From positions 64,001-128,000 of the IMG/VR virus record IMGVR_UViG_3300032038_000001: a stretch of 64,000 bases of DNA; one strand, given 5' to 3'. The position numbers were made by a program, and so were the translations under genes. The stretch is from a virus (Duplodnaviria > Caudoviricetes). Shown here one piece after another: positions 3,247 to 39,885 of the stretch; position 1 is the stretch's first letter, and each line of letters starts with the position of its first letter. The notes below the pieces were generated by a model, which was given only the letters and a program-made list of their open reading frames with translations, made no database searches and was not told where the DNA came from.

Positions 3247-3303
3247 TAATATCTATATCAATATACGTATATTAAAAAGATAAATATATATATTATTTTT
3301 AAT

Positions 3304-3432
3304 GTAATATATAGGTGAGTAAAAACATCTATATGTTATAAAGAAAACATATACGGTTCTTTACCACATGTCAAGTGGATTTCATTACCCGTAGTCAAAA
3401 GAAATGAAAAAAGTACATAGGAGGTACTTAAA
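3304..3432 (+). ncRNA. structured 5' leader, copy D (5' hairpin + pseudoknot + SD-loop hairpin)
   Basis: Pairings: GTAATATATAGGTG/CATCTATATGTTAT; TACGG/CCGTA; CCAC/GTGG; TTTCATT/AATGAAA; AAGTAC/GTACTT around ATAGGAG. The GTCAA linker is present. Architecture matches 25886, 27322 and 39381. Confidence 0.65.
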
Positions 3433-4368
3433 ATGGAAGTAAAAGTAACAAAAATAGTAAGAGGGTCAATTTTCACAGTCGATGACCACAACCCGACCGG
3501 CGATATCCCATCACACAATTATATCGTCATAAACATGGGTGCTGACAGCATACCATGTGCTAAAGTAATGTGTATGGGGATAACCTCATGCCGGAACGCA
3601 TCACCGACAAATATTTTTCATGACATGATGCCTATAGTCATGAGTAATGGCTATAAATGTTATGTCGATACAACGAAAGTTTACTTCTTTAGACCCCAGG
3701 AGGTAAACTTAAATAGATTTAAGGGCAGTATTGATCTATTGATAGTAGAAAAGCTGTTAAAAGTTTTTCTAATACGGGTGGGTCTACTGCCTTTAGAGGA
3801 GTATTCAGTATTAAAGAAGGAACTGGGGTTGATAGATATATCGACCCCACAGAAGAACAAGTCTCCTCTAACTTCTGTAGATGAGGAAGACACGGTTTCT
3901 GTAACTTCTTCCTCATCTACAGAATCTTCTAAGATTTCTTCATCTGATAAAGATGAAAAGAAAGTCAAAGAAGAAAGTAAAAAGGATGAAATAGCAACAC
4001 CATGGTACCCACGGTTGATAGCTGAGTATACAGACGAGCAGCTCGAAAGAGCTCTTGTCATACTGAAATCTGGCGACGCCGAATGGTGTGCCAGAGAGAT
4101 GCGTTGCAACAGTCACAGCGCAGTAAAACATAAATTAAAGAGGATTACTGAGGAGATTAATCTAAGAACTCCTCAAAAATTCTCTGAAAAATTCCAGAAA
4201 TTCGGCTCAAAACCGGAATTCTGGGAAAAAAGTGACTTAGAGCGCTTCTCTAAGCTCTTTACAAGTGACAGAGAACAACTCGAAGTCGAAAGTGGTCAAA
4301 AGACCACACAGTTGTTCAAAATATTTGATACAGTCAAAAAGGAATTGAAAAGGAGGGGAATAAGATAA
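3433..4368 (+). CDS. protein with N-terminal PemK/MazF-like domain, Ser/Glu-rich linker and helical C-terminus
   Basis: RGSIFTVD..P.G....HNYIVI....VMCMGITS resembles the PemK pattern RGDI.WVD..P..G.E..K.RP.LV.....V.VAPITS. Confidence 0.5.
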   Translation: MEVKVTKIVRGSIFTVDDHNPTGDIPSHNYIVINMGADSIPCAKVMCMGITSCRNASPTNIFHDMMPIVMSNGYKCYVDTTKVYFFRPQEVNLNRFKGSIDLLIVEKLLKVFLIRVGLLPLEEYSVLKKELGLIDISTPQKNKSPLTSVDEEDTVSVTSSSSTESSKISSSDKDEKKVKEESKKDEIATPWYPRLIAEYTDEQLERALVILKSGDAEWCAREMRCNSHSAVKHKLKRITEEINLRTPQKFSEKFQKFGSKPEFWEKSDLERFSKLFTSDREQLEVESGQKTTQLFKIFDTVKKELKRRGIR

Positions 4369-12302: not shown

Positions 12303-14396
12303 ATGAATAACTACGAAATTGATAAAAATATCAAGGAAGCTACTGTTGGAGTTGATATGAGCTCTGACGACGGTAGACGCTTTAAAAAAGAACCTAGGAT
12401 AAATGTAATATCAAAAGAAGAATTTGAAGAAAGAACTCAACAGGTATTTCATCTCCTGTGGAAGCATCTTTCAAAGTCGTTTGGTCCATATGGTGCTCCG
12501 ACTTTAATAAATAATTATCCTTATAGACACGTAACAAAAGATGGATATACAATAATGAAGCATCTTTCTATGGATTGCTCAGAAACTCTGGTTGACCAGG
12601 CTATTGCTGATATGGCGGCAGATATATGTGGTAGACTTAACTATTCAGTTGGTGATGGTACCACATCTGCAGTTATTGCAACAAATAGTATTTTCCAGAA
12701 TTATTGTAATTCTAAAAAGTGGTTTAAGGATAACTATATTCTTCCTCGTGACATACTTCAAAAGTATGCCATTATTAAAGAAGAACTTATTAAGCGTCTT
12801 CATGAAAAATCAAGACCAGTAACTAAAGAGAATTTATATCAGATAATTCATGATGTTGTCTATATATCAAGTAATGGTGATGAACAGATAACTGATTATA
12901 TATCTGATTTATATAGAGAACTTGGTTGCCCTGCTATTTCTTGTGCACTTTCTCCTGATGGTGTGACAAGAAAAACTTTGATAAGCGGCTATAAGTTCGA
13001 AGCAACGCTTACTGATAAGCTTTATATTAATTCAGATGATAATACATTAAAGTTAAATGAAGCAGATATTGTCATCTTTGAAACAAAGATAACACGTGAA
13101 ACTTATGAAACGATTCTCATGCCTCTCAATAATAATTGCAGAGCTAGAGGAAGACATCTTATAGTTATGGCACCTTATTATGATGAGATTGCTCTTAAAC
13201 AGGTTATTGCTCGTGATTTAAATAATGAGTATTCCAAGAATAAGGATATTAATATGATTCTTATGACATATCGTGCAACATCGGCACATGCTAAGAGAAT
13301 TATAAATGATTTTGCAGTTCTTGCAAATACACTTATAATTGATAGAGCTATAGAAAGGTCTATTAAGGACGATATTGCAGGTGGTAGACAAGTATTTGAG
13401 ATATTTAATATTGATAATAGAGATATACCGTCTATAAATAATATAGCGTTCCCCATTGATAATTCTACTGGTGATGTCCATGTTGTATATGACAATCCCA
13501 TTATTTTTACAGGTATAAATGAAGTTCCTGAAGGATTTTCTATTCCTAATCTTATAGATAATCCAATAAGGCTAGGATATGCAGGAGATATTTCTCTTGG
13601 TCTCGATTCTTCTGTATTCGGTAAGTTCTTCTATGATGAACATCGTTTTGATACAATATATCATGATGCAAAGGATATACTCGAAGCGACTGAGAAGAAG
13701 TATCAAAAGCTTGGAACATTCAATTACGAAGTTTCTCAGGCACAGGAAAGATTCTATTCATTGAATCTTAAGATGGGACTCATTGAAGTTGGTGCGGATA
13801 GTGAACTTTCACAGAAGCTGTTAAAAGATGCTGTGGATGATGCTATTAAGGCAGCAGCAAGTGCTTTTAATTTTGGAGTAATTAATGGATGCAATGTTGA
13901 CCTTATCTCGTGTATTGAAGAATCATTGCAGAGTAAACTTCATGAGAATACTGTTGATACTACTGACATAGTATTATACAAGATTCTCAGAGGTGGATTT
14001 AGAGATGTGTATAAGACAATACTCGATAGTGCTATAGGAAATTTTGAGATCGAAATCAATAAGTGCCCTAATGGTTTTCCTAAGGAACTTCATATTGGTA
14101 TGATTAAAAATATATTCCCTGATTATGATAAATTAAATGAACTTATCATGTCATTACTTAGTAAGGAAGATTCGTCTACAGATGAAGAAGTACACATCAA
14201 AACTTCTTTAATTGATCTTATTATAGACTATTCTGTTAAGTATGGTCTCGTGTTTGATGTAGCATCTAAGACTTTTACTAATAGAGTAATTAATTCTTGT
14301 AGAACTGATGAAGAAATCCTTAAGGCAACGATTGATTTGATTTCGCTGTTAATTACTGGAAATCAGATGGTTGTAACACAGAAACATAATTTCTAA
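12303..14396 (+). CDS. groEL: GroEL-like phage chaperonin
   Basis: SFGPYG, VTKDGYTI, VGDGTTSA and DAVDDAIKAAASA..GV..G. Confidence 0.92.
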   Translation: MNNYEIDKNIKEATVGVDMSSDDGRRFKKEPRINVISKEEFEERTQQVFHLLWKHLSKSFGPYGAPTLINNYPYRHVTKDGYTIMKHLSMDCSETLVDQAIADMAADICGRLNYSVGDGTTSAVIATNSIFQNYCNSKKWFKDNYILPRDILQKYAIIKEELIKRLHEKSRPVTKENLYQIIHDVVYISSNGDEQITDYISDLYRELGCPAISCALSPDGVTRKTLISGYKFEATLTDKLYINSDDNTLKLNEADIVIFETKITRETYETILMPLNNNCRARGRHLIVMAPYYDEIALKQVIARDLNNEYSKNKDINMILMTYRATSAHAKRIINDFAVLANTLIIDRAIERSIKDDIAGGRQVFEIFNIDNRDIPSINNIAFPIDNSTGDVHVVYDNPIIFTGINEVPEGFSIPNLIDNPIRLGYAGDISLGLDSSVFGKFFYDEHRFDTIYHDAKDILEATEKKYQKLGTFNYEVSQAQERFYSLNLKMGLIEVGADSELSQKLLKDAVDDAIKAAASAFNFGVINGCNVDLISCIEESLQSKLHENTVDTTDIVLYKILRGGFRDVYKTILDSAIGNFEIEINKCPNGFPKELHIGMIKNIFPDYDKLNELIMSLLSKEDSSTDEEVHIKTSLIDLIIDYSVKYGLVFDVASKTFTNRVINSCRTDEEILKATIDLISLLITGNQMVVTQKHNF

Positions 14397-25513: not shown

Positions 25514-25885
25514 TTAGCGTCTGGGGAAACCTAACAGGCTAATATCCCAACCGAATATTTCCTGATAGATATGACGTTTTCTCTCGAAAGGTACGTCGTT
25601 AAACGTACCCTTCTTAGCATAGCAATATATAGTGTCTGTAAGACTATCTATAATATCATTGAGCTGGTCATTTGCCCAAACTCCAGTTGACTCAAGGTAT
25701 GCTAGCTGATAGACGTTAGGAAGTAATGCCGTTTTGAACAGCGGCATTAACTTATCTTCATTGTTGTCGATATACAGCAAAGATACCGATGATGTGCATT
25801 TCGCAAAAAGTTCGGTATATGTTGTAGCATCTTCATCAACGAGAGAGTTAATAGCTGTGAGAATGTTCTTTACTACGGTATTCAT
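25514..25885 (-). CDS. hypothetical early protein behind structured leader
   Basis: 123-aa ORF with RBS AAGGAGG; terminator at 25464-25509. Confidence 0.8.
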   Translation of the reverse strand: MNTVVKNILTAINSLVDEDATTYTELFAKCTSSVSLLYIDNNEDKLMPLFKTALLPNVYQLAYLESTGVWANDQLNDIIDSLTDTIYCYAKKGTFNDVPFERKRHIYQEIFGWDISLLGFPRR

Positions 25886-26048
25886 ATCATTAGTCCTCCT
25901 TTAGAACTATACTTTGTTTTCTTGACAAGAGTAAACAAAGGAACATATAAAATGTTCGAAAAACTCTTTTAATAATTTTTATGTAATCTTCGTTAATAAT
26001 TAACTCGACGCCTTCGCTATGAAGTTGAGGTAATTATTTATTGATTAC
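25886..26048 (-). ncRNA. structured 5' leader, copy C
   Basis: Cap motif AACTTCATAGCGAAGGCGTC (26026-26007). Pairings AAGAGT/ACTCTT, GAACA/TGTTC, CTTTGTTT/AAACAAAG and TAGTTC/GGACTA; GTCAA linker. Promoter TATATACTAT-N6-G. Confidence 0.75.
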
Positions 26049-26090
26049 ACCGATATAGTATATAATTATAATATTTGATTTTACGGAAAA

Positions 26091-26136
26091 ATAAAGAGAG
26101 TGATAGATTAACTTCTATCACTCTCTTTATTCTTTT
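26091..26136. terminator. bidirectional-type terminator
   Basis: ATAAAGAGAGTGATAGA/TCTATCACTCTCTTTAT. Confidence 0.7.
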
Positions 26137-26151
26137 TGTATCTTGTATATA

Positions 26152-26715
26152 TCACTTTTTTTGAGCAATTATATCATAAAAATGCCATTTTTTATTATTT
26201 GATTCTCTGATATATTCGATTTCATCTAATTTTATTATTTTATATTTTTGTAGATATTTTTTTACCTCCTCTATAGTGAAAGTATTGATTGACTGATTAT
26301 TTTTCCAATCATCTCTATCTCCAAATAGTTGCCCTACAAAATATCCATTATTATTTATAGAATTATAAATTTTATTCCATAAATTATCAAAATATTTTGG
26401 ATTACAAAAAGGAATACTAAAAAACGCTGTAATCGCATCAGTTTTAGGTAGTTTAATATTTTCAAATTCATGTTCTAAAAATGTTACATTTTCTTTTATA
26501 CTTTCATCAGCTCTAGATAATATATACTGTTTATTTAATTGTCTATCTACAGCCAAAACCTTAATACCATGATTTAGCATATATATAGTTTCATTTCCAC
26601 TACCACACCCTAAATCAATAGCATCTTTTATTTTATAATTATTTAAAAAATATATTAATAATTTGCTTACATCGTTATTATATGTTCTTTTTTGGTAATT
26701 TCTCCAATCTTTCAA
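26152..26715 (-). CDS. class I SAM-dependent methyltransferase (TehB-like)
   Basis: AIDLGCGSG, VLAVD, FFSIPFC and GYFVGQLFG. Confidence 0.85.
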   Translation of the reverse strand: MKDWRNYQKRTYNNDVSKLLIYFLNNYKIKDAIDLGCGSGNETIYMLNHGIKVLAVDRQLNKQYILSRADESIKENVTFLEHEFENIKLPKTDAITAFFSIPFCNPKYFDNLWNKIYNSINNNGYFVGQLFGDRDDWKNNQSINTFTIEEVKKYLQKYKIIKLDEIEYIRESNNKKWHFYDIIAQKK

Positions 26716-26931
26716 ATATTTTCAACTCCTTTCTCATTGATTAGACCGTTAAGTGATGTAAGAATGTTCTTCATTAACAATTAGCTCGACACAGTTATTA
26801 TAATATTTGTTACTGAGATAGAATATAATTATAATAATTGATTTTATGGAAACACAATTATATAAAAAAAAGAGCGAGTGTTGCAATTCGCAACACTCGC
26901 TCTTATATAGCCTTATCGTAGCTGCATTATA

Positions 26932-27321
26932 TTATATGACAGTCTTAAGTGCAGATATGATAGCTTCTGCGTTGTCGAGGATGATATCCTCAATATCATG
27001 AGTAGTACTAACATCAGGACCCCCAAACCCGTCGTTGAGGTCATTGACTTTAACTCGGATTATCATGGATCCTGTTGCGGACCCCTCCTTATTTGTGGTT
27101 GTTATTTCACAATCTCCAAAACTATCCAAGTGGGTGCTGTTGGGAACTACAGTATGAAGACGGATTAAACAGTTATTGGTCATAAGAATTTTCTTATTTC
27201 TCCATCCAATAATTTGGTTTTCTCCGTCATAGATTTCTGTACTGGTCTGAAATTCAGTTTCTGCTATGAGCGATATTAACGCTCCAACTGCAACTGCAGA
27301 AATCTTGTTGAAAGTATACAT
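26932..27321 (-). CDS. hypothetical early protein behind structured leader
   Basis: 129-aa ORF with RBS AAGGAGG; hairpin at 26871-26903. Confidence 0.8.
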   Translation of the reverse strand: MYTFNKISAVAVGALISLIAETEFQTSTEIYDGENQIIGWRNKKILMTNNCLIRLHTVVPNSTHLDSFGDCEITTTNKEGSATGSMIIRVKVNDLNDGFGGPDVSTTHDIEDIILDNAEAIISALKTVI

Positions 27322-27488
27322 ATGATTACCTCCTTGTAATCATACTCTGTTTTATTGACTGTGGTAAACAGAAGGAACATAGAAGTTCCGAGAAACCACA
27401 TTGTTGTTTTTATGTAATAAGTTATATATATAACTTAACCTGATACCTTCGCTATGAAGTTAGGGTAAGATATTATATATTTTATTAC
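27322..27488 (-). ncRNA. structured 5' leader, copy B
   Basis: Cap motif AACTTCATAGCGAAGGTATC (27461-27442). Pairings TGTGGT/ACCACA, GGAAC/GTTCC, TTCTGTTT/AAACAGAG and TATGATTAC/GTAATCATA around AAGGAG; GTCAA linker. Promoter TATATATTAT-N6-G (27504-27488). Confidence 0.75.
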
Positions 27489-27583
27489 CTAGAGATAATA
27501 TATACATAAAATTATTAGGTTTACGGTTTTATAATAAAAAATCATATATATATAAACAAAACTATAGTAATAAAAAATCATAC

Positions 27584-27654
27584 TGGGGTATCGCCAAGAG
27601 GTAAGGCAACGGACTTTGACTCCGTCATCATCAGTTCGAATCTGGTTACCCCAA
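27584..27654 (+). tRNA. tRNA-Gln (anticodon TTG), CCA not encoded
   Basis: Acceptor TGGGGTA/TACCCCA; D-arm GCC AAGAGGTAA GGC; anticodon arm ACGGA CTTTGAC TCCGT; T-arm ATCAG TTCGAAT CTGGT. Late motif at 27555-27566. Confidence 0.93.
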
Positions 27655-33366: not shown

Positions 33367-34053
33367 GTGTTAACTATGAAATTTCCACAGTTTTTATTAG
33401 CCGATGACGAGAGGACATTCCAAGTCATTGGAGAAATAACCAAAAACGATGATGAAGCAACTGGCATCTTTGTTGATGGAAAAGGGTATATTGATGAAAA
33501 TGGATATATCTGGATTCATTCAGGTTCTGGTAAACCTAAGAATGCAAATCAGTTACCATATTTTTGGTTTGAAAATGGTAAGAAGAAATTTTCCGAACCA
33601 AATAAAAAAGTTTTTGATGTCTATAATTCATCAAAGTTGAAAGACATGAGTATCGGTATTATAGTTGATAATACCAAGGAAGGTGAGGAACTTTATTCTG
33701 AACAGGCAATAAATGATATGAATTCTGCTGCAGAAGTCTATGTTCCTACGTATAAAGACACTGATGATTTTCTAAAGAAGTTAATTAAGACTGCTATTGT
33801 AGAAAAAGGTGTAGACATTGCTAGGCTGAAATATAAAATGCCTGAGAAGTATATACTTCCTAATATGAAAGCAGCTCTCAATGGAGATACAAAAATGTCA
33901 GTGTTATATTTTATAACATGGGCTGAATTATTAGGTCTTGACTTTATGGTTGTACTGAATGATAACGGCTCGGATCCTATCGACCCGTTAAAGCAGTCAC
34001 TCATATACGATAGTACAAAGGATAGAGTTTTAAGGGAGAGTGAAATGAAATGA
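33367..34053 (+). CDS. hypothetical early protein, coupled to ppk
   Basis: Early motif 33318-33334; the stop overlaps the ppk start. Confidence 0.8.
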   Translation: MLTMKFPQFLLADDERTFQVIGEITKNDDEATGIFVDGKGYIDENGYIWIHSGSGKPKNANQLPYFWFENGKKKFSEPNKKVFDVYNSSKLKDMSIGIIVDNTKEGEELYSEQAINDMNSAAEVYVPTYKDTDDFLKKLIKTAIVEKGVDIARLKYKMPEKYILPNMKAALNGDTKMSVLYFITWAELLGLDFMVVLNDNGSDPIDPLKQSLIYDSTKDRVLRESEMK

Positions 34054-36059
34054 AATTAAATCTCGATACCTATGAAATGGTATTTAAAAAGGAACCAAAG
34101 GTTCGTGGTAAATTTATTAATAGAGAACTTTCATTGATTGATTTTGATGAGAGAGTCTTATTTTGTGCAACTGATAAAGAAGTTCCTTTAAATGAAAGGT
34201 TAAACTTTTTATCAATTACGGATTCTAATCTTACCGAAATGATATCCGTGAGATTTGCCAATGCATTTCATAATAAAGATACTGAGCCTTATGGTAAGAT
34301 TCTCAAGAAAATTATCTCATTTAAGAAAGCTCAAAATGATGTTTATACTTCATTAAAAAATGAACTTGGGAAAAATGGAATAAAATTCATGAAAGTATCT
34401 AATCTTGATAAAAAAGAAAGAGCAAAACTTTATAATGAATATATGAGAAACATTTTTCCTTTGTTAACACCTGTGAATGTTAGAATAAATGATATTCCGG
34501 ATATATCATCGGGTGAGTTATGTCTAGCAGTCACGATAATGAATGGTTCTATTGATGAACTTATTATGATACCATTAGGTAATATAGATAAGATTTATCA
34601 AATCGGAAATAAAGTGCTAATGATAGAAGACATAATATTCAGTTTTATGTCTGATACGTTATTCATTAATAAAGAAATAACGTCGAAAGGTATTTTTAGA
34701 ATTATTCGTGATGGGTCTGTTATTCTATCTCATGATACTAGTCGTTTTATAGTAGATAGAATGACTGATACTATAAAGAGACGTGAGCATGGAACTCCAA
34801 TATTTGTTGAGGTCAATAAAGAGGCTTCCGATAGTTTAACAGATATGATTATGAATATTTTCAAGATACCTAATAATCATATCTACAGTGATTCAAGTAT
34901 CATTTATTATCAAAGGTTTTCTCAGCCTTTACTTGATTCTAAGGAATCGTATAAGGCATTTAAGCCGTATGAATATGAAAATGAAGAGAATTACCATGAC
35001 ATGTTTGATGCAATAAGCCATGAGGATATATTACTTCATCATCCATATGATAGTTATGAAACCGTTGTGAAGTTTATTCAACATGCTGCTGTTGATAAAG
35101 ATGTTAAAGCCATCAAACAAACACTTTATAGAGTTTCATCTGTTGATTCTCCAATAGTTGAAGCTCTTTGTACTGCCGCTAGAAACGGTAAAAAGGTTTC
35201 AGTACTGATAGAAATAAAGGCTAGGTTTGATGAGGAAAATAATATCAAACTCATATCCAAACTTCAAAACGCTGGTGCCGTAGTTATTCTTGGTAATGAA
35301 TATCTAAAAACACATTGTAAACTTTGCGTTATAATACGTAAAGAAAATGATAAATTGAAGATATACAGCCATGTTGCTACTGGTAACTATAATGAAAAAA
35401 CATCTAGAATTTATACAGATATTTCATATTTTACCAGCCGGCAAAAAGTTGGAAATGACTTACTGCATATATTTAACATTCTATCTGGACATTCTAATCC
35501 TGATGAAAAATTACAAAAGATATACTATTCTCCAGTCACACTAAGAAAACAGCTCATTAGTTGTATTGATAGAGAAATAGCACTTGCTAAGAAAGGTAAG
35601 AAAGCTGAAATATTTATGAAAATAAACTCTTTATCCGATAAAATAATGGCTGATAAAATCTATGAAGCTGCTGATAAAGGAGTTAGTGTATATATCATAT
35701 GCAGAGGAGTATGCAGCATTGTACCAAGAAAAAATCTATATATCAAATCTATTGTAGGTAGATTTCTTGAACACAGCAGAATATATTATTTTGGTAATGG
35801 TAAAAACCATGAATATTATATATCTTCTGCTGATCTTTTGACTCGTAATCTTGATAAACGAGTTGAAACGTTAATTTCACTTAAGGACTCTGCTGTAGTA
35901 AAACAGCTTAAGTGGATAATTGACGTGTATAAGAATGACAATTCAAATTCTTTCATTATGCTTAAAGACGGAAAATGGCATAAAAAGAAAGGTGACTTCT
36001 CATGCCACGATTGGTTTATAAAGCATACTAATGACAGAAAAAAGATTAAGAAAGGATAA
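34050..36059 (+). CDS. ppk1: polyphosphate kinase 1
   Basis: INRELS, LLHHPYDSY, IKQTLYR, EIKARFDEENNI, KTHCK (phospho-His), TGNYN, IVGRFLEHSR and SSAD..RNL..RVE. Confidence 0.95.
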   Translation: MKLNLDTYEMVFKKEPKVRGKFINRELSLIDFDERVLFCATDKEVPLNERLNFLSITDSNLTEMISVRFANAFHNKDTEPYGKILKKIISFKKAQNDVYTSLKNELGKNGIKFMKVSNLDKKERAKLYNEYMRNIFPLLTPVNVRINDIPDISSGELCLAVTIMNGSIDELIMIPLGNIDKIYQIGNKVLMIEDIIFSFMSDTLFINKEITSKGIFRIIRDGSVILSHDTSRFIVDRMTDTIKRREHGTPIFVEVNKEASDSLTDMIMNIFKIPNNHIYSDSSIIYYQRFSQPLLDSKESYKAFKPYEYENEENYHDMFDAISHEDILLHHPYDSYETVVKFIQHAAVDKDVKAIKQTLYRVSSVDSPIVEALCTAARNGKKVSVLIEIKARFDEENNIKLISKLQNAGAVVILGNEYLKTHCKLCVIIRKENDKLKIYSHVATGNYNEKTSRIYTDISYFTSRQKVGNDLLHIFNILSGHSNPDEKLQKIYYSPVTLRKQLISCIDREIALAKKGKKAEIFMKINSLSDKIMADKIYEAADKGVSVYIICRGVCSIVPRKNLYIKSIVGRFLEHSRIYYFGNGKNHEYYISSADLLTRNLDKRVETLISLKDSAVVKQLKWIIDVYKNDNSNSFIMLKDGKWHKKKGDFSCHDWFIKHTNDRKKIKKG

Positions 36060-39294: not shown

Positions 39295-39380
39295 AGATGA
39301 AAGAATATAGGTATGCGCCTATATTCTTTTTTTATTATAAAACCGTAAACTTAATAATTTCATATATATAATATTTTAGT

Positions 39381-39552
39381 GTAATAAGATAAATGATATC
39401 TTAATCTAACTTCATAGCGAAGGCGTCAGATTAAGATATTATATAGATTATTACATAAACAGCAGTAAGTGGTTTCTCGGAACTTTTATACGTTCCCTCT
39501 GTTTACCACAGTCAATAAAACAGAGTATAAGTACAATAAGGAGGTACTTATT
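39381..39552 (+). ncRNA. structured 5' leader, copy A
   Basis: Cap motif AACTTCATAGCGAAGGCGTC (39408-39427) sits inside TTAATCT/AGATTAA. Pairings GTGGT/ACCAC, GGAAC/GTTCC, CTCTGTTT/AAACAGAG and TAAGTAC/GTACTTA; GTCAA linker. Promoter TATATAATAT-N6-G (39365-39381). Confidence 0.75.
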
Positions 39553-39885
39553 ATGACATTAACAGAAAAAATGGAATTAGCAGAGTTGATTCGTGGTATC
39601 GTTCGTGAAGAGCTGCAGAGAGTGCTTGCGGAAAATAATAAAACTGTAGACAGCGGCACTACTACAACTACCATCGGCAGCACTGAAAATGCAAAGGCTT
39701 ATTTGAAGAAAATAAGCCCGATGATGAGTGAGTATGTGAGCCGATATACCCTCTATGATATCAGCAAAGAAATGAAGTCAGTACTTACAGCTGACGAAAT
39801 AAAGTACGTCATTATCCACCTGGACTCAAATAACTTGTGTAGCAAGAAAAACAGCAGAGACCTAAGTGAGATGCTGTTTAAGTAA
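39553..39885 (+). CDS. hypothetical early protein behind structured leader (110 aa)
   Basis: ATG 39553 follows AAGGAGG; terminator at 39889-39932. Confidence 0.8.
   Translation: MTLTEKMELAELIRGIVREELQRVLAENNKTVDSGTTTTTIGSTENAKAYLKKISPMMSEYVSRYTLYDISKEMKSVLTADEIKYVIIHLDSNNLCSKKNSRDLSEMLFK

Follow-up and report, generated by a model that had tools for sequence, protein, structure and literature searches.

Repeated leader RNAs with a predicted pseudoknot in front of unrelated early genes of an AR9-related phage

Introduction

5′ pseudoknots that promote or control initiation are familiar from plasmid repZ/repA and from rpsO, all of them single-gene elements. A further case is tisB, where a pseudoknot is required for binding of 30S and protein S1 beside a sequestered RBS (PMC7708055), and pseudoknotted RNA is also what the ToxN/CptN-type proteins of type III systems bind (PMC5086642). 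The repetition of expression signals in front of many genes has been described for the PeSL cassettes of the T4-type phages RB49 and phi1, in which a repeated early promoter and SD shuffle orphan genes (PMC2839356). According to the AR9 transcription study, the early promoter of that phage consists of an AT-rich motif, six bases and then the +1 G, its early transcripts are poorly enriched for triphosphate ends, and there are long early 5′ UTRs as well as an early-UTR motif that its authors left untested (PMC5312081).

Here we analyse a 64,000-nt window (positions 64,001 to 128,000 of IMG/VR record IMGVR_UViG_3300032038_000001) from a 250,395-bp virus record that carries multisubunit RNA polymerase beta/beta′-like genes related to those of AR9, PBS1, SA1 and Fusobacterium jumbo phages. 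The SD sequences of the phage are Firmicute-like, and its near relatives are gut-metagenome contigs from ruminant gut (AUXO records, bovine gut runs). A first-pass annotation of the window, made from the letters alone, had proposed that four early genes share a three-domain structured leader serving as a portable expression cassette. Our analysis indicates that the leader is a real RNA family within a PeSL-like mobile cassette, apparently undescribed.

Results

Leader copies and their transcription units

The four annotated leaders, A (39381-39552, +), B (27488-27322, −), C (26048-25886, −) and D (3304-3432, +), are present with the stems attributed to them, including the S1 stems GTGGT/ACCAC (A), TGTGGT/ACCACA (B), AAGAGT/ACTCTT (C) and TACGG/CCGTA (D); they are, however, four of a genome total of ten. 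Each leader belongs to a one-gene unit made up of an AR9-type early promoter, the leader, the gene and an intrinsic terminator, and the units in the window are arranged as follows.

39343-39381 (+), copy A early promoter: CCGTAAA box 39343-39349, AT-rich motif 39366-39374, predicted +1 G 39381
39381-39454 (+), copy A domain 1: a long hairpin that opens at +1 and contains the conserved asymmetric loop and, at 39408-39427, a pentaloop hairpin
39469-39525 (+), copy A domain 2: H-type pseudoknot with S1, U-rich L1, inserted hairpin P, S2 and GTCA-containing L3
39528-39550 (+), copy A domain 3: hairpin with the SD GGAG in its loop, −6.1 kcal/mol
39553-39885 (+), gene A: 110-aa orphan, intrinsic terminator from 39890
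27488-27526 (−), copy B early promoter: predicted +1 G 27488
27414-27488 (−), copy B domain 1: 5′ hairpin
27345-27400 (−), copy B pseudoknot
27321-27344 (−), copy B SD-in-loop hairpin: −8.5 kcal/mol, extends to the A of the start codon
26932-27321 (−), gene B: 129-aa orphan with 7 homologues, all close; terminator from 26902
26152-26865 (−), methyltransferase unit lying between B and C: an early promoter, then a short, degenerate leader that has no pseudoknot, then the gene for a 187-aa SAM methyltransferase
26048-26086 (−), copy C early promoter: predicted +1 G 26048
25983-26048 (−), copy C domain 1: 5′ hairpin
25912-25968 (−), copy C pseudoknot: S1, P and S2 sequences unlike those of A and B
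25891-25909 (−), copy C SD hairpin: −5.6 kcal/mol
25514-25885 (−), gene C: 123-aa orphan, terminator from 25509
3288-3296 and 3304-3339 (+), copy D promoter motif and 5′ hairpin: predicted +1 G 3304; plain hairpin, conserved loop absent
3352-3409 (+), copy D pseudoknot: divergent allele
3411-3429 (+), copy D SD hairpin: −4.6 kcal/mol
3433-4368 (+), gene D: 311 aa, N-terminal 130 aa with a MazF/PemK/ToxN fold; terminator from 4378

The +1 sites are predictions by analogy with the AR9 spacing (PMC5312081). With this spacing, +1 falls on the G that opens the 5′ hairpin in A, B, C and most homologues, and a CCGTAAA box is usually present upstream of the early motif. The annotated start at the G following that motif holds as motif, six bases and G in A, B and C, whereas seven bases intervene in D.

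Nine of the ten copies share 75-99% identity from +1 to the start codon, and the similarity of A, B and most other copies is therefore attributed to recent duplication; D shares 53-60%. A model built without D recovers D at E=1.5e-12, the next-best match in the genome lying at E=0.0135. The fold of copy A has a z of −5.4. Many early genes of this phage lack the knot. Outside the window, at about 164270-164480 of the genome record, an early promoter precedes another structured RNA, which has complementary loops and is unrelated to the present leaders. Other genes in the window include a Gln-type tRNA with a CTTTGA anticodon loop (27584-27654), on the strand opposite to the copy B promoter that it adjoins, a phage-encoded polyphosphate kinase with Pfam PP_kinase domains (34050-36059) and a GroEL-like chaperonin (12303-14396).

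A pseudoknot that covaries across lineages

At the core of the leader is an H-type pseudoknot whose loop 1 harbours an inserted hairpin; a weak hairpin that displays the SD comes next. In related phages there are about 30 copies, whose stems differ in sequence and still pair; they include four in G001 (77% RNAP identity), one each in L304 and L309, three in L332 and more in closer strains. The L309 and L332 copies were found at E values of 1e-8 to 5e-10 by a model that had not been trained on them. In a plain MAFFT alignment, S1 and S2 are 92% paired and both sides have changed in 9 of 14 pairs, while S1, P and S2 together, again aligned with MAFFT and not fitted to structure, reach 90% pairing and show compensatory change at 13 of 18 pairs; the corresponding pairing is 73% in shuffles and 43-56% in slid controls. 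None of 500 shuffles, which ignore kinship, matched the observed pairing or covariation score. Each helix shows several pair types in separate lineages, and domain 1 is 85% paired with covariation in 10 of its 15 pairs. Selection on RNA structure, which the first-pass annotation had argued from compensatory changes, is thus supported by the crossing helices and domain 1, which covary across lineages. The changes that carry information are those in C, in D and in the other phages, whereas A and B both belong to the 75-99% identity group and compare by shared ancestry.

Some details of the annotated fold had to be revised. The supposedly invariant GTCAA linker is constant only in GTCA, as GTCAC and GTCAG also occur, and the fifth S1 pair, at the S1/S2 junction, is not conserved, being U-A in 15 of 22 copies and unpaired in 6. 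The 5′ hairpin does start at the predicted +1, but the annotation had missed that in A-C it has an asymmetric loop, AA facing GYRUC, that is conserved, together with a pentaloop of the AUAGC type; D has neither. Extended versions of domain 1 occur in G001 (L156, L158, L160, L162) and at L304:17860-17960, with a further bulged stem and a pentaloop added on top of the same AA/GYRUC loop; judged by sequence, these variants look like a conserved protein-binding site. Several unpaired or junction bases of the knot are invariant as well, namely GUU at the S1 end, one U in L1, and GUCA with an A-run in L3. We infer that they would fit base triples or a binding surface, and they could serve equally as a protein site or as a ligand site. 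Between D orthologues with 76-79% protein identity, the knot has not changed.

Separable domains and a fixed distance to the start codon

The three domains of the annotated fold are separable and need not occur together. Domain 1 is found without the knot in G001 (near 42.6, 85.8 and 136.2 kb) and in G004, and the knot is found without domain 1 in L309 and L332, where it starts 11-13 nt after +1. The genes of a 108-aa family carry the knot in L188/L388 and the 5′ hairpin alone in G001. The 5′ hairpin is optional and the SD hairpin nearly constant. Of the 29 copies, over which the SD hairpin averages −5.3 kcal/mol, 26 are predicted to form it; its stem exists in at least five sequence versions, and GGAG sits at the end of the loop. 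With the knot formed, GGAG is predicted to be 80% unpaired on average. From the end of S2 it is 21-29 nt to the AUG and 8-14 nt to GGAG in all 29 copies, whereas the distance from +1 to S1 varies from 11 to 109 nt, and the knot is therefore tied to the start codon rather than to the 5′ end.

Further leader variants were seen in the same collection. In L158 (G001 about 85640-85700, −) a different and smaller pseudoknot-like module with CCCC/GGGG and a GTCAA linker takes the place of the main knot after domain 1, and a copy at L388:2800-2930 keeps the knot while its promoter core and domain 1 are deleted between short repeats. In two different phages (L305:9830-9900, −, and L181:7680-7730), a repeated early-leader module consists of a GTCAG..GGATAAAGAC hairpin followed by an A-rich run and the SD.

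Mobility of the cassette units

The cassette genes are mutually unrelated except for one three-member family and have no Pfam or PHROG annotation; gene D alone has a recognisable fold, the others being orphans, and the host-takeover role that the first-pass annotation gave them is conjectural. L391/L392 have an additional unit, carrying a 118-aa gene, between 108-bp direct repeats that are 627 bp apart, and the syntenic L388 has one repeat. The methyltransferase unit is absent between the B and C orthologues in L185/L391, and gene B is headed by a different leader allele in each of three strains. The proposal of a portable expression cassette is borne out by the one-gene units, the whole unit between direct repeats and the leader swaps at gene B, and comparison of the strains shows, at the sequence level, that recombination between leaders is how units come to be duplicated, exchanged and inserted. 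Among low-depth contigs from sequencing runs, one RNA contig falls inside gene B. Three cassette genes at L139:2800-4330 and L140:2680-3610 have a common N-terminal membrane anchor, two being full-length paralogues and the third alike over its first 60 residues only, a pattern that suggests recombination inside the gene start.

Distribution and novelty

No copy matched any Rfam family, in line with the first-pass annotation, which had recognised no known riboswitch or ribozyme: the scan gave no match at E<=1 for the window copies, with riboswitches, ribozymes, leaders and ToxI among the families covered, and none at E<=3 for seven further loci. BLASTN against cultured phages returned nothing beyond short AT-rich or SD matches. 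Neither G002, which is complete, nor G003, both distant relatives, yielded a copy with the models; nor did AR9 over its first 50 kb or the partial sequences that flank the RNAP genes in L305-L308, L310 and L311, and models R1 and R2 had no match in T7 1-1500. Exact-pattern scans of viral and genome collections gave nearly all chance matches, the genuine ones being L004, G001 and L332 only; there was no bacterial copy among the genome-collection matches (best E 0.02-0.07). The leader is described nowhere in the literature searched, although it may be among the unnamed predictions of a survey of 10,000 viral RNA candidates (PMC10690425).

A translation-initiation element as the preferred reading

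The knot keeps its place relative to the RBS whatever the gene and wherever the 5′ end lies, and on this ground we rank a role in translation initiation first, tisB offering a precedent for such a function (PMC7708055). We tentatively favour the view that the leaders are cis-acting 5′ RNAs of early units in which the knot is a constitutive, ligand-independent translation-initiation element. At the sequence level, each self-contained early unit consists of a virion-RNAP-type promoter, the leader, one fast-turnover gene and a terminator. The knot would lie where the 30S platform and mRNA exit meet it once the SD is engaged, and could dock or pre-position the small subunit, directly or via protein S1 or another protein, while the RBS would be locked beside it in a local hairpin independent of the gene. 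A newly captured gene of any kind would in this manner be strongly translated at once, and the 5′ hairpin from +1, together with the knot, might as a secondary benefit protect the message from 5′-end-dependent decay. The fixed SD spacing could also stem from co-transfer as one block, or from a repressor or nuclease site that overlaps the RBS, and the many early genes that lack the knot speak against this reading. A more ambitious version, which we hold to be possible but doubtful, is that of a portable IRES-like phage RNA that attracts Firmicute ribosomes through its structure, or is recognised by a MazF-fold protein of the phage, with the result that early genes stay translated during host shut-off and a mix-and-match leader kit sets the output of captured genes.

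Gene D and the alternative readings

Two alternatives are unlikely in our estimation, and neither excludes the other or an initiation role. In the first, the knot and the SD hairpin form an operator through which a phage protein switches the early set off (or on) together, the candidates being the gene D product or a RegB-like nuclease acting at GGAG. Residues 1-130 of the gene D product have a confident predicted fold (pLDDT 87, compared with 48 for the full-length model), for which Foldseek returned MazF, CcdB and the type III toxin CptN, with a probability of 1.0 for MazF and CptN and a TM of 0.5-0.63 to both; the Pfam PemK match is weak (E=0.002, in one homologue). The domain (window 3433-3822) stands alone, with an invariant His-Asn-Tyr motif among homologues instead of the usual Arg-Pro, and is fused to helical C-terminal repeats; the gene lies behind an early promoter and no antitoxin gene was seen. 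The family counts about 19 divergent homologues and none in cultured phages. Proteins of the ToxN/CptN type bind RNA pseudoknots in type III systems (PMC5086642), which makes the modelled gene D product a candidate partner of the knot, all the more as gene D itself carries the element. The invariant unpaired bases point the same way, as does the co-occurrence of knot and D homologue in the present genome and G001 and the absence of both from the complete G002, a pattern based on three related genomes. Against it, the D homologue P0138 of the G001 lineage has a short leader without a knot, in one contig and at its edge. For a nuclease, the precedent is T4 RegB, which cleaves GGAG of early mRNAs (PMC1702504), but RegB needs a single-stranded A-rich run after GGA, and the SD hairpin pairs that run. 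A MazF site was also considered, as UACAU occurs once in all ten leaders of the genome; it was rejected, the motif being absent from several lineages and not depleted in coding DNA.

The second of these, no more probable than the operator, is that the knot mechanically blocks RNase J, as a bacterial xrRNA, and leaves a stable RNA, still fit for translation, whose 5′ end lies shortly before the RBS. A pseudoknotted viral xrRNA stops RNase J1 in vitro (PMC5760640), and the poor triphosphate enrichment of AR9 early transcripts (PMC5312081) would be in keeping with this, as would the Firmicute-type SD of an AR9-like phage and the knot-only leaders, in which the knot begins so soon after +1. Such a block needs no fixed SD distance, yet the SD distance is the conserved one, and in most copies the long hairpin already pairs +1. 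The strand order of the knot is also unlike that of the three-way-junction xrRNAs of flaviviruses, which counts against a block.

A riboswitch that senses a small molecule of host or phage and controls translation appears very improbable. The combination of a U-rich L1 and an A-rich L3 in a pseudoknot beside the RBS resembles preQ1- and SAM-II-type architectures, which counts for it, and an alternative fold of copy A pairs S1/L1 with the SD. However, Rfam gave no match, the SD lies outside S2, and when the knot is disallowed the SD pairs with knot strands at >50% in just 6 of 29 copies; moreover, the downstream genes share no pathway or function. The ligand sensor offered by the first-pass annotation is accordingly disfavoured, there being neither a gene theme nor a conserved alternative fold.

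Still less credible is a decoy role, in which the knots would imitate type III antitoxin RNA and titrate host ToxN/CptN/TenpN toxins. Antitoxins of this type are H-type pseudoknots with single-stranded tails (PMC5086642), and many abundant copies with A-rich flanks would be made together after infection, but the leaders have no tandem repeats and no terminator before the gene, their inserted hairpin and 57-nt size are unlike ToxI/CptI (L1 of CptI being one base; PMC5086642), no ToxI match was found in Rfam, and the fixed SD/AUG coupling would be unexplained. Finally, the reading least likely of all, that only the DNA repeat matters (as promoter and recombination substrate) and the pairings are leftovers of duplication, agrees with the identity of the nine similar copies and the insertion of units between direct repeats, but explains neither crossing helices with compensatory changes across lineages nor a D knot that stays constant while gene D drifts, and is on sequence grounds largely refuted by the covariation.

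Discussion

The leader combines a covariation-supported fold that is absent from Rfam with up to ten copies per genome. The phages that host it have their own polymerase and are already free of host transcription, and the leader gives a direct means of asking how they capture ribosomes and keep their first messages safe. If the element is a gene-independent enhancer or an RNase J block, it would provide a ready 90-nt expression part for Firmicutes, and the natural alleles with and without each domain are built-in controls.

Among known systems, the ribozymes of the HDV-like/theta type have a nested double pseudoknot with P3/L3 between P2 and P1, whereas here the 5′ strand of S2 runs straight into the 3′ strand of S1 in all copies. 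The likeness to ToxI/CptI, an H-type pseudoknot upstream of a MazF-fold gene (PMC5086642), applies to copy D only; there are no tandem repeats and no terminator before gene D, and nine of the ten copies precede other genes. With xrRNAs the leader would share a compact pseudoknot and, by analogy, a candidate RNase J1 stop, but xrRNAs are eukaryotic viral 3′ UTR elements of another topology (PMC5760640). In tisB, too, initiation at a structured RBS is promoted or controlled by a pseudoknot in the 5′ region, yet this is a single-gene element that acts from about 100 nt away under antisense control, and the likeness proposed here is one of function (PMC7708055). The promoter consensus and the +1 G are shared with AR9/PBS1, for which the part of the AR9 study considered here reports no pseudoknot and our models found none in the first 50 kb of AR9 (PMC5312081).

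Closest are the PeSL cassettes, with which the leaders share a dispersed, repeated early promoter and SD before orphan genes, and gene gain and loss between repeats, here in L391/L392 versus L388; a further trait of PeSL cassettes is the excised mini-circle. The stem-loops of PeSLs lie inside the promoter and terminate upstream transcription (PMC2839356), whereas here there is no sigma70 promoter with an internal G/C stem-loop, the terminators are separate and follow each gene, and a leader of 100-170 nt is transcribed from a phage virion-type polymerase promoter and is pseudoknotted. The PeSL idea of gene shuffling would thereby be extended from promoters to whole translation modules.
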